Made by a program: the position numbers. DNA of 64,000 nt from the NCBI RefSeq assembly GCF_003018255.1, contig NZ_CP027440.1. The stretch is one strand, 5' to 3'. The number at the start of each line of letters is the position of its first letter. Position 1 is the stretch's first letter. Source of the DNA: Escherichia coli. Its GTDB lineage: Bacteria > Pseudomonadota > Gammaproteobacteria > Enterobacterales > Enterobacteriaceae. This document shows positions 27,801-30,800 of the stretch, piece by piece.

Positions 27801-30800
27801 AATCGATGCTATTCACCACCATTTGCAGCACGGTAGTGATGATCCGGCTACCGCCTGGGCTTCCGGTGACCAGCCAGGTTTTACCGTCTTTCACCACAAT
27901 GGTTGGTGACATCGACGACAGCGGACGTTTATTCGGCCCGACCGCGTTAGCGTCACCACCCACCAGCCCGTAAACGTTCGGCACGCCCGGTTTGGCGGAG
28001 AAATCATCCATTTGGTTATTAAGCAGAATACCGCTCTCGCCCGCGACAATGCCCGTACCGAAGGTGGTGTTCAGCGTATAGGTCACCGCCACCGCGTTAC
28101 CATCTTTATCCACCACTGAGTAATGGGTAGTTTGATTACTCTCATAAGGCGCAAGCTTGCCAGGGCGAATTTCGCTGGATGGCTTCGCTTTATTGATATC
28201 GATTTGATCGGCAATAGATTTGGCATAGGCTTTATTGGTCAGCGCCTGCCACGGGACTTTGACAAAATCCGGATCGCCAAGATATTCCGAGCGGTCGGCG
28301 TAGGCGTATTTCTCCGCTTCTGCCATGATTTGCATCGCATCGGCGCTGCCAAAGCCGTATTTCTGCATATCGAAGTTTTCCAGGATATTGAGGATCTGCA
28401 CGATATGAATCCCACCGGAAGATGGCGGTGGCATCGAGTAAACCTGATACCCGCGATATTCGCCGCTAATCGGTGTACGTTCGACCGCTTTATACGCCGC
28501 TAAATCTTCTTTAGTGATCAAGCCACCGTTTTTCTGCATCTCCTGGGCAATCTGTTCCGCTATCGTGCCTTTGTAGAATTCGTCCGGGCCGTTTTCGGCA
28601 ATCATCTCCAGGCTCTTTGCCAGGTTCGCCTGCACCAGCTTGTCGCCCTTTTTCAGCGGCGCGCCCTCTTTCCAGAAGATAGCCTTGCTGTTTTCGTGAT
28701 TCGGCAACACTTCGCTACCGTAGGTTTTGAGATCGTCAGCCAACGCGTCGTTAACGATAAAACCATCGCGTGCCAGTTTAAACGCCGGTTGCACCACTTT
28801 GTTCAACGGCATGGTGCCGTATTTATCCAACGCCAGCGAGAAACCTGCTACCGTACCGGGCGTACCAGAAGCCAGATGCGAAGTGAGTGATTTTTTGCTG
28901 TCCGGGTTACCCTGATCATCAAGGAACATATCGCGGGTCGCTTTGGCGGGAGCCATTTCGCGGAAATCGATAGCGGTGGTATTGCCATTTTTCGAGCGGA
29001 TCAGCATAAAACCACCACCGCCCAGATTCCCTGCCTGCGGATGCGTTACCGCCAGCGCGTAGCCCACAGCCACGGCGGCATCAACGGCATTCCCGCCCTC
29101 CTTGAGGATATCCACCCCCACCTGAGTGGCAGTAGCATCTACAGACGCCACCATCCCCTGTTTCGCGCGTACCGGATGAAAGACATCTTCCTCCACGCCG
29201 TAAGAAACAGGAGACGGCGCAGGTGGCGCGGCTACCGTACTAAAACAACTTCCTGTGAACAGAGCAGCAATGGCCACCCGGCGTAAAAACGTCGGTTTTA
29301 TCATCGTTATTCTCCAGAGATTAAGGGGCAACCCCAGCTAAGCCTGGTATATAACTCTGAATTAATCCTGATGATTGCAGGAAAGGAGTAAACTTAAAGA
29401 ATATCTTCAGAGGAGGATACGCGATGAAACGACTTCTGATTCTTACGGCACTCCTGCCGTTTGTCGGCTTTGCACAGCCCATTAATACTCTGAATAACCC
29501 TAACCAGCCGGGGTATCAGATCCCCAGTCAGCAGCGGATGCAAACCCAAATGCAAACGCAGCAAATCCAGCAAAAAGGGATGCTGAATCAGCAACTGAAA
29601 ACGCAAACGCAGCTGCAACAGCAGCATTTAGAAAACCAGATAAACAATAATTCTCAGCGGGTGTTGCAGTCACAGCCGGGGGAGCGAAATCCCGCCCGAC
29701 AGCAAATGCTGCCCAACACCAATGGCGGGATGTTAAACAGCAACCGTAATCCGGATAGTTCGTTGAATCAGCAGCATATGCTGCCGGAAAGGAGAAACGG
29801 CGACATGCTGAATCAGCCCAGCACGCCGCAGCCTGACATTCCGTTGAAAACTATTGGGCCGTAAAGTTCGGACCAATCACGTCAATCGCATCGGTACAGA
29901 TGCAATCCACGCCCCAGCGCAGCAACTCTGCCGCGCGCTGGGGTTTATTGACGGTATAAACCAGAATCCGTAATCCGGCGTCTTTCAACTGCATCACTCG
30001 CGCTTTATCGAGCAACTTATGATTGAGATGAATAGAGACGCAGCCCAGCCGCGCGGTCAATTCTCGCCAGTCGTCGCGCCATTCATCAAGCAATAAACCA
30101 CGCGGCAGTTCCGGTGCTGCCTGTTGCGCGGCTTCTAAAGCATCAATCTCAAACGATGACAGCAGCGGCGGCGTCATACCGGTCCACAGTTCGCGTGCCG
30201 CCAGCGCCACCGTTTTGCCCGTTAATGGCCCGGTGCCAGTGGTGGGTTTGATTTCGATATTCGCCATCATCCCGTGTTCGCGACAGCGTTCCGCCACCTG
30301 CGAAAGCAACGGCAGCGGCTCACCTTTAAACGCTTTGCTGTACCAACTGCCCGCATCCACGCGCAGTAAATCCTGCCAGTTCAGTTCACCCGCGACGCCC
30401 CAGCCGTTGCTGGTGCGTTCGAGATTGTCGTCATGAAGCAAGAAGATCTCGCCATCTTTCGATAACTTCGCGTCAAATTCGATCATCTTATGACCGTATC
30501 TTGCCCCCACATCGATTGCCGCCAGGGTGTTTTCCGGGGCCAGTTTACCGCCGCCACGATGGGCGACGATGCGGGGATAAGGCCAGTTACTCATACTCGT
30601 TGTCCTGTTTCACCATCAAAAAGATGTAGCTGATTTTCCGGCAGATGCAGCCACAGCGTGCTGCCTGCCGTCGGGCGCTCCTGATGCGCCAGTCGCAACA
30701 CCAGCTTCTGTTCGCCCCAGCGTCCGTGCGCCAGGTTATCTGCGCCGAGGATCTCCAGCGTGTCCATCACCAGCGGCACGCCACCTTCAGCCTGCGAACG

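Follow-up and report, generated by a model that had tools for sequence, protein, structure and literature searches.

The Escherichia coli yhhA gene encodes a strongly constrained Gln-rich protein with a predicted helical core and overlaps ugpQ at its 3' end

In a 64,000-nucleotide stretch of the Escherichia coli contig NZ_CP027440.1 (hereafter the window), yhhA is a genuine protein-coding gene under strong constraint, because its product matches Pfam and NCBIfam families, the gene is nearly universal in E. coli, it is preceded by a Shine-Dalgarno sequence, its changes relative to K-12 are synonymous only, and its dN/dS is low. With moderate confidence, we favor a model in which YhhA is an RpoS-driven exported protein with a helix that docks on a partner and a flexible tail, rather than a prion or amyloid or a compositional spacer, and in which tight packing accounts for the overlap with ugpQ. 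Earlier work already covers the gene and its family, the control by RpoS, the expression, and the transcript overlap with ugpQ. The gene and the segments of its product are as follows.

29424-29864, + strand: coding region of yhhA, 146 codons and a stop codon (DUF2756 / PRK10350)
29424-29474, + strand: Sec-type signal peptide, residues 1-17; predicted cleavage between GFA and QP, read from the sequence
29475-29522, + strand: Asn/Pro-rich mature N-terminus, residues 18-33, motif NNPNxPGY; conserved columns, pLDDT 49-60
29523-29669, + strand: Gln-rich segment, residues 34-82, the DUF2756 core; predicted single long alpha-helix
29670-29861, + strand: predicted disordered tail, residues 83-146; pLDDT below 50, ending in the conserved IPLKTIGP

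The initial annotation named this gene yhhA, and the name holds. The 146-aa product is identical in sequence to K-12 YhhA and matches both Pfam DUF2756 (PF10956; E=1e-60, 202.9 bits versus a cut-off of 21) and the NCBIfam equivalog PRK10350 (E=1.5e-79, 265 bits versus a cut-off of 136) over its full length. In alignments of homologues, YhhA shows the arrangement of this family, in which the Gln-rich core NPSQQRMQxxMxxQQ...QQQxLxxQ comes after an N-terminal signal peptide. At the DNA level, the window differs from K-12 at 11 positions of yhhA, all synonymous (11/11), with the window carrying a minority allele. The gene is annotated in 5,424 of 5,426 complete E. coli genomes. Within Escherichia, dN/dS is 0.01-0.03 for residues 18-82, 0.09-0.22 for the tail, and 0.08 for ugpQ.

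The DUF2756 family occurs in Enterobacteriaceae only, in 143 species that include non-pathogens. Its gene almost always lies between ggt and ugpQ, and ggt is adjacent in nearly all 79 species loci. A tblastn search of 50,697 phage records matched only mis-filed Salmonella chromosome contigs. One preprint reportedly proposed that YhhA is an effector of type III secretion and uses S/TQ motifs to mimic substrates of ATM kinase, and the protein does contain seven [ST]Q and four Q[ST] dipeptides. However, such dipeptides are expected at 22% Gln, and YhhA carries a canonical cleavable Sec signal peptide. Moreover, the gene is not limited to pathogens bearing a type III system: it is core in E. coli, including K-12, and is present in numerous non-pathogenic genera, including Kosakonia, Phytobacter, and Buttiauxella. 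We give the effector proposal almost no credence.

At the N-terminus of YhhA, a positively charged n-region precedes a hydrophobic core of 13 residues, and positions -3 and -1 are occupied by small residues. Across 27 homologues, A17, Q18, and P19 (AQP) never vary, and position -3 is restricted to small residues (A, S, G, C, or V). Thus, the signal peptide claimed initially is confirmed, and its features are conserved among the homologues. An Rz-like i-spanin was rejected, as hhalign against lambda Rz returned nothing and, in place of an N-terminal membrane anchor, YhhA has a hydrophobic stretch of only 13 residues with a cleavage site; in PHROGs, YhhA itself is unmatched, and one distant 87-aa homologue weakly matches spanin families (E=4e-4).

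Downstream of the cleavage site, N21, N24, N25, P26, and N27 are invariant in 27 sequences, and P29 and Y31 are nearly so. Residues 34-82 contain 19 invariant columns across genera in the same number of sequences, with Gln, Met, and Leu among the invariant positions. This Gln-rich core is kept in the most distant homologues (87-117 aa; 36-50% identical), in which the tail is absent. AlphaFold2 predicts one helix over residues 34-82 with pLDDT 70-86, a moderate confidence that should be weighed against the tendency of this program to model Gln-rich sequence as long helices; in the tail, pLDDT falls below 50. When the segment was analyzed for amphipathicity and heptads, permutation gave no significant helical moment, either for its full length (p=0.18) or for residues 53-82 (p=0.07). 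A coiled-coil dimer of the helix is unsupported: when residues 18-90 were modeled twice with a 40-residue Gly/Ser linker and a 15-row alignment, the model retained the helices, but its pLDDT decreased to ~60 and its pTM was 0.31. Additionally, a profile search of PDB sequences with YhhA gave nothing below E=2.9.

The tail contains five ML(N/P) motifs and two repeats of ~24 aa (residues 92-115 and 116-139), and one DNA repeat within it, D1, has a spacing of 72 nt. E. albertii YhhA lacks one of the two tail repeats, and in-frame length variants of 96 to 163 aa occur in E. coli. Thus, the tail varies by in-frame indels that the repeats mediate.

The mature protein (129 aa) comprises 22.5% Gln, 14.0% Asn, 10.9% Pro, 6.2% Thr, and 5.4% Met, with 12% charged residues, two His only, and no Cys, Trp, or Phe; the binomial probability of its Gln count is 4e-13. 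The initial annotation described Gln/Asn/Thr repeats. The Q/N richness is real, and the peptide quoted there corresponds to residues 40-67, but Thr is not abundant, and Tandem Repeats Finder detected no tandem DNA repeat in yhhA, where the direct repeats are short (11-15 nt) and dispersed.

The methionines allow another reading, in which YhhA either binds Cu(I)/Ag(I) in the periplasm, as SilE, PcoE, and CusF do, or serves as a sacrificial sink for Met oxidation that MsrP recycles. The presence of seven Met among the 129 residues, an MxxxM pair (M39/M43), and the five ML(N/P) motifs agrees with it, and in close homologues M43, M53, and M119 are invariant while M39, M103, and M128 are nearly so. 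In the wider family, however, M43 alone survives, and distant members lack both the ML motifs and the tail; thus, the Met/His motifs expected of a binder of the SilE, PcoE, or CusF type are not conserved across the YhhA family. Besides the scarcity of His and the lack of Cys and Trp, no Pfam metal-binding family is matched, and the literature consulted gives no link to copper or silver regulation. A methionine-based function is therefore highly improbable in our assessment.

The composition was also called prion-like, with disorder prediction proposed as a check. By the classical threshold, a Q/N-rich domain has at least 30 Gln plus Asn per 80 residues, and the best 80-residue segment of YhhA (residues 21-100) has 36. 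Disorder is predicted for every segment by a negative charge-hydropathy index, and the low pLDDT of the tail agrees, whereas residues 34-82 are predicted to be helical. These values are compatible with a periplasmic protein whose Q/N-rich region self-assembles into an amyloid or gel, similar to curli subunits or yeast prion domains. In the same direction, the strongest hydrophobic periodicity of the Gln-rich segment lies near 2 residues, which is strand-like and results from alternating Q-x-Q-x patterns, and the natural in-frame variants of E. coli change the length of the Q-rich part. In contrast, conservation is position-specific: with 19 invariant columns and the very low dN/dS of residues 18-82, it is not composition alone that is conserved. 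The predicted helix, the Pro content, and the charged residues also argue against self-assembly, and a rough PAPA-type score is -0.04 to 0.01, below the usual cut-off of 0.05. A curli-type amyloid like CsgA/CsgB was rejected, as Pfam gave no Curlin_rpt match (E<=1) and Tandem Repeats Finder no tandem repeats; no other amyloid family was matched in Pfam at the same limit. We regard the amyloid reading as quite improbable. Thus, the prion-like label describes the composition and the predicted disorder, while the position-by-position conservation, the AlphaFold2 helix, and the PAPA-type score speak against it. An ordered globular fold and absent expression had been named as grounds for rejecting this label; neither applies, since YhhA appears non-globular and is clearly expressed. 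Collectively, on conservation and structure prediction, YhhA is better described as a position-specific helical, partner-binding protein than as a prion-like domain conserved by composition alone.

The features upstream of yhhA are listed below.

27559-29304, - strand: ggt, periplasmic gamma-glutamyltranspeptidase, divergent from yhhA with a 119-nt spacer
29339-29357, strand unassigned: a further conserved block of the ggt-yhhA spacer, TAAGCCTGGT..A.AAC, with invariant columns
29389-29397, + strand: candidate sigma-S-type -10 element, TAAACT then TAA, inferred from conservation
29410-29416, + strand: strong Shine-Dalgarno sequence, GAGGAGG, 7 nt upstream of the ATG; the GGAGG-type block is conserved in 19 genera

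The sequence TAAACTTA, located 27 nt upstream of the yhhA ATG, is invariant across 19 genera. A scan for the sigma-70 consensus found no promoter in the yhhA upstream region. The putative promoter is assigned on the basis of this cross-genus conservation and a published SELEX peak of the sigma-S holoenzyme within the ggt/yhhA spacer (PMC5493296). The block at 29339-29357 may serve ggt or yhhA as a promoter or operator. In published work, yhhA is listed among the cold-induced genes of the RpoS regulon (PMC4057180), and its expression rises along with rpoS in the exponential-to-stationary transition (PMC2241611). A LolCDE inhibitor induces it 5.6-9.9-fold (PMC5105897), acid also induces it (PMC2270276; PMC7824302), and it is up in a multi-stress meta-analysis (PMC9501238). 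Furthermore, the protein has been seen by mass spectrometry in E. coli (PMC9927464; PMC9731836) and in Salmonella (PMC4265081), and a figure legend in one of the E. coli studies groups it with the periplasmic SodC, ZraP, and PsiF (PMC9731836).

At its 3' end, yhhA meets ugpQ in the following arrangement.

29851-30594, - strand: ugpQ, glycerophosphodiester phosphodiesterase, last gene of the ugp operon, convergent with yhhA
29851-29864, both genes: 3' coding overlap of yhhA and ugpQ, 14 nt, CTATTGGGCCGTAA; K-12 has identical geometry
29911-29949, + strand: candidate yhhA intrinsic terminator within ugpQ codons; 10-bp GC-rich stem then UUUAUU, 47-85 nt past the yhhA stop
29790-29829, - strand: candidate ugp operon terminator within yhhA codons; 12-13-bp stem with a U/C-rich tail

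Both the 14-nt overlap reported initially and the transcript overlap deduced from it are borne out. The yhhA and ugpQ mRNAs share complementary sequence because each stop codon sits within the other gene, and RNA-seq lists the pair as one of 165 convergent excludons of MG1655, called in at least 50% of 58 MG1655 transcriptomes (PMC12288877). Hence, when both genes are expressed, their opposite-strand transcripts overlap as in other excludons, across at least the 14-nt coding overlap. Of the 79 species loci, 69 have an overlap of some length, with values of 4, 11, 14, 17, 20, and 23 nt across species, and 14 have an overlap of exactly 14 nt. Ten species have a gap of 5-284 nt instead, and one distant genome has a 696-nt gap. 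In this comparison, 14 nt is not a particularly conserved length.

Both candidate terminators are hairpins, with a dG of -26.1 kcal/mol (z=-2.9) for 29911-29949 and -29.3 (z=-2.8) for 29790-29829. Coding constraint confounds both of them, and many genera have a poor U-tract or none. For 29911-29949, pairing of the stem reaches 89% across 85 sequences, but the same nucleotides code for the conserved PQR and RWG of UgpQ; the covariation signal is weak, with few true compensatory changes, and the U-run is absent in many genera. The hairpin at 29790-29829 has a homologous counterpart with a better U-run in Citrobacter, Kosakonia, and Superficieibacter. An Rfam scan of 29000-31000 found nothing relevant.

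This arrangement raises the question of whether antisense regulation is the main point of the locus, with yhhA and ugp transcription reading into each other and repressing each other by polymerase collision or RNase III, a role that would be compatible with a YhhA protein function alongside. The coding overlap forces RNA complementarity, the excludon call in MG1655 points the same way (PMC12288877), overlap is widespread among species, and DUF2756 and GDPD genes stay convergent even in loci that lack a neighboring ugpBAEC or ggt. However, the overlap length is not conserved and is replaced by gaps in some species, the narrow clade means that synteny may be plain inheritance, and the strong protein-level selection makes yhhA more than an antisense device. 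We consider antisense regulation as the main role unlikely. A combined scheme, in which stationary-phase YhhA assembles reversibly through its Gln-rich helix in the crowded periplasm (as a condensate, gel, or Gln-zipper), tuned by the 96-163-aa variants, and the RpoS-driven transcript acts as a cis-antisense brake on ugpQ, is in our view very improbable. If true, one compact locus would tie general stress to glycerophosphodiester scavenging.

In the favored model of a helical, partner-docking protein, RpoS activates yhhA when cells enter stationary phase or meet envelope, acid, or cold stress. The Sec pathway would export the product, and removal of the 17-residue signal peptide would leave a very hydrophilic 129-residue periplasmic protein. 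The Gln-rich segment of ~49 residues would be helical, or become helical upon binding, and the conserved helix may dock onto a specific partner, either a protein or an envelope polymer. The tail may supply short linear binding motifs through its two ~24-residue repeats with ML(N/P). The 3' overlap with ugpQ would stem from tight packing together with a labile C-terminal extension. Because there is zero intergenic room, each transcript must end inside the partner gene; if the transcripts do end at the two candidate hairpins, the RNA complementarity would reach ~160 nt. Mutual dampening may thus arise between the RpoS-driven yhhA and the ugp operon, which is driven by phosphate and carbon starvation. 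As a discovery, yhhA matters little, since the gene, family, control, and overlap were recorded previously. Nevertheless, YhhA is a "y-gene" product of unusual make-up for the periplasm, for which the analysis narrows the options to a selected helix and a repeat-built tail, and yhhA-ugpQ offers a clean, testable case of genes whose terminators must lie inside each other.

Comparison with known systems places these results in context. Spy, CpxP, and ZraP resemble YhhA in having a signal peptide, a length of ~130-150 aa, a predicted helical structure, and induction by envelope stress. In contrast, YhhA has no LTxxQ motifs and is under RpoS rather than Cpx/Bae control, and a Spy/CpxP-type chaperone was rejected for lack of detectable homology (hhalign probability 0.1% versus Spy). 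The curli subunits CsgA and CsgB are Sec-exported, Q/N-rich functional amyloids of E. coli. They are, similar to YhhA, small enterobacterial proteins under stationary-phase control, but YhhA has no curlin repeat and no csg-type secretion genes nearby, and it is Pro-rich with a predicted helix instead of a beta-solenoid. Yeast-type prion-like domains share the Q/N density and predicted disorder, whereas in YhhA the sequence itself is conserved, the location is periplasmic, Pro is high, and the rough prion score is sub-threshold. YhhA of K-12 (b3448) has the same protein sequence, locus position, and 14-nt ugpQ overlap, with no substantive difference beyond the synonymous changes. Finally, yhhA-ugpQ shares the convergent arrangement and obligatory RNA overlap of the convergent excludons in the ExcludonFinder E. 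coli excludome (PMC12288877), and it differs from excludons generally in having an overlap that extends to the coding regions and, for each gene, a candidate terminator embedded in the partner coding sequence.

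In the window, which is E. coli chromosome, yhhA lies between a divergent and a convergent neighbor:

27559-29304, minus strand, ggt, encoding periplasmic gamma-glutamyltranspeptidase
29424-29864, plus strand, yhhA, a 146-aa ORF
29851-30594, minus strand, ugpQ, encoding a glycerophosphodiester phosphodiesterase (GDPD), followed by ugpC

The encoded protein is identical to K-12 YhhA (b3448), all 11 nucleotide differences from the K-12 gene being synonymous, and it matches Pfam DUF2756 (E=1e-60) and the NCBIfam equivalog PRK10350 (E=1.5e-79). The region is found in 5,424 of 5,426 complete E. 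coli genomes, with the annotation yhhA, "DUF2756 family protein". The product of yhhA in the window is the type member of DUF2756. Additionally, positions 29300-29950 reach at least 99% identity in only 79 of the 5,424 genomes, most showing 95-99%, so at this locus the window derives from a minority lineage or carries a minority allele.

The initial annotation had described a secreted protein dominated by Gln/Asn/Thr repeats, quoting a peptide that corresponds to residues 40-67, and this description is essentially right. The protein begins with a standard Sec signal peptide comprising MKR, a 13-residue hydrophobic core, and G-F-A|Q-P; in the 27-sequence alignment of homologues, AQP never varies and position -3 invariably carries a small residue. 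The predicted mature protein of 129 aa contains 22.5% Q, 14.0% N, 10.9% P, and 5.4% M but no Cys, Trp, or Phe, and Q and N together make up 36 residues of its richest 80-residue stretch. So many Gln residues would be highly improbable under average E. coli composition (binomial P 4e-13). Two points of the initial description need correcting: Thr accounts for only 6.2%, and the DNA contains no tandem repeat but short dispersed direct repeats of 11-15 nt, spaced mostly by multiples of three. The GRAVY value is -1.4, and the charge-hydropathy index is below 0 in every segment.

To describe residue conservation, we used an alignment of 27 sequences from approximately 20 genera. In the helix region, Q37, R38, Q40, Q42, M43, Q46, Q47, Q49, G52, M53, L54, Q56, Q61, Q65-67, L69, Q72, and N74 are invariant, as are M119 and L120 in the tail. 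Comparisons within Escherichia give dN/dS values of 0.01-0.03 (residues 18-82) and 0.09-0.22 (tail), versus 0.08 for ugpQ, and a Shine-Dalgarno sequence (GAGGAGG) lies 7 nt upstream of the yhhA ATG. YhhA is a real, selected protein; the low dN/dS and the many individually invariant residues set it apart from a low-complexity region conserved in composition only. Prion or amyloid behavior would agree with the composition of YhhA, but neither its evolution nor the predictions fit, and we consider this reading very unlikely. Separately, synonymous divergence at 29475-29669 (codons 18-82) is approximately three times as high as in ugpQ when Escherichia species are compared pairwise. The proportion of twofold-degenerate sites that differ is 20-29% versus 6-9% (Fisher p 0.002-0.13), and NG86 dS is 0.64-0.93 versus 0.18-0.24, with almost no non-synonymous change. 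This may stem from relaxed codon bias, from exchange driven by the repeats, or from an artefact of the method.

AlphaFold2, run with a 27-row alignment, predicts a single long helix at residues 34-82 (pLDDT 70-86), and everything past residue 87 falls below pLDDT 50. The helix is not significantly amphipathic, and a tandem-dimer run did not raise confidence; hence, we do not claim a coiled coil, and the data support no more than a core that is helical or becomes so on binding. The most distant homologues (36-50% identical, 87-117 aa) keep the signal peptide and Gln-rich core and have lost the tail, so the core defines DUF2756. The tail consists of two repeats of approximately 24 residues, of the form QQ(H)MLP-x3-NG-x-MLN, at residues 92-115 and 116-139, one copy of which is lost in E. 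albertii. The Met motifs are not conserved across the wider family, and Met-based metal binding or use as an oxidation sink is scarcely credible. Rare E. coli alleles (P0001, P0012, P0021, P0035, and P0092) encode 96-163 aa through in-frame deletions or duplications; these indels (29538-29627) are flanked by short direct repeats, such as the 15-nt D4 at 51-nt spacing.

The family is tiny: an exhaustive HMMER search of 1.84 billion cluster representatives yielded 65 at E<=0.001. Across 100,044 scanned species genomes, 143 loci encode a relative; among the 80 listed, the names are almost all Enterobacteriaceae genera, and one contig labelled Chryseobacterium is probably a mislabelled record. Nearly all of the 79 loci with ugpQ show the order ggt <- -> yhhA <- ugpQ, and even divergent members still converge on a GDPD gene where ugpBAEC or ggt is absent. 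At L010:804-1888, L008:2746-4190, and L003:168-1219, for instance, the convergent GDPD gene is kept even though ugpBAEC is not adjacent; in L010, the gene pair shares 10 nt and is followed by liv-type ABC transporter genes. Given the narrow clade, this synteny may reflect descent rather than function. As exceptions, one homologue adjoins mlaFEDC and another lies within a prophage-like region. The latter, the 87-aa P0168 (L004:5001-5264), is encoded between genes for phage capsid/protease and the large terminase on a 109-kb metagenome contig and weakly matches Rz-like spanin PHROGs (E=4e-4); no DUF2756 gene was found among 50,697 phage records. We found no homology of YhhA to Spy/CpxP, Rz spanins, curlin repeats, or any solved structure. 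YhhA has also been proposed as a T3SS effector mimicking ATM substrates (bioRxiv 10.1101/364117), which is contradicted by its Sec signal peptide and by the presence of yhhA in K-12 and non-pathogens. In one lineage, a type III effector/chaperone pair (AvrPphF-ORF-2 and CesT domains) lies between ggt and the DUF2756 gene (L005:3680-4750 and L006:3680-4750).

As reported, yhhA belongs to the RpoS-regulon genes induced by cold (PMC4057180), increases together with rpoS as cells pass from exponential to stationary phase (PMC2241611), responds to a LolCDE inhibitor with 5.6-9.9-fold induction (PMC5105897) and to acid with mild induction (PMC2270276, PMC7824302), and is up in a multi-stress meta-analysis (PMC9501238). 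Mass spectrometry has detected the protein in both E. coli and Salmonella. Genomic SELEX placed a sigma-S holoenzyme peak in the ggt/yhhA spacer and a sigma-28 (RpoF) holoenzyme peak inside ugpQ (29851-30594), flanked by yhhA and ugpC (PMC5493296). The spacer is 119 nt long (29305-29423) and contains two blocks invariant across 19 genera:

29389-29396, TAAACTTA, resembling a sigma-S -10 element
29339-29357, TAAGCCTGGT..A.AAC, the second block

A GGGG-N3-CCCC hairpin also lies at 29325-29335, approximately 15 nt upstream of the ggt Shine-Dalgarno sequence (minus strand). Collectively, the results show or strongly support that YhhA is a periplasmic protein under strong selection, exported through Sec and induced by RpoS, with a Gln-rich, helix-prone conserved core and a disordered, repeat-built tail. 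We infer that the core would mediate the specific binding by which YhhA acts, the tail motifs adding auxiliary contacts.

The yhhA stop codon ends at 29864 (plus strand) and that of ugpQ begins at 29851 (minus strand), which confirms the 14-nt overlap described initially; K-12 is identical. The coding 3' ends overlap in 69 of 79 species, by 4 nt (35 loci), 14 nt (14), 17 nt (9), 20 nt (8), 11 nt (2), or 23 nt (1), and gaps of 5-284 nt occur in the other 10 loci. Tight packing, not the 14-nt length, is conserved. With zero intergenic space, the termination signals of each gene must sit inside the opposite one, where two hairpins are candidate terminators:

29911-29949, plus strand, in ugpQ, yhhA side: 10-bp GC-rich stem then UUUAUU (dG -26.1, z=-2.9)
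29829-29790, minus strand, in yhhA, ugp side: 12-13-bp stem with a U/C-rich tail (dG -29.3, z=-2.8)

The plus-strand stem shows 89% pairing over 85 sequences, but the same nucleotides specify conserved UgpQ residues (PQR and RWG), the covariation signal is weak, and many genera have no U-run. The minus-strand hairpin has a homologue with a better U-run in Citrobacter, Kosakonia, and Superficieibacter. Use of both hairpins would give the two RNAs approximately 160 nt of complementarity. The overlap would chiefly be a by-product of compaction, perhaps with mild antisense cross-talk. Regulation as an excludon, in which convergent neighbors have overlapping 3' transcripts, could, less probably, be the main point of the arrangement and is compatible with a function of the protein. 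The overlapping transcripts, correctly anticipated by the initial annotation, are already documented: ExcludonFinder places yhhA-ugpQ among 165 convergent excludons present in at least 50% of 58 MG1655 transcriptomes (PMC12288877).
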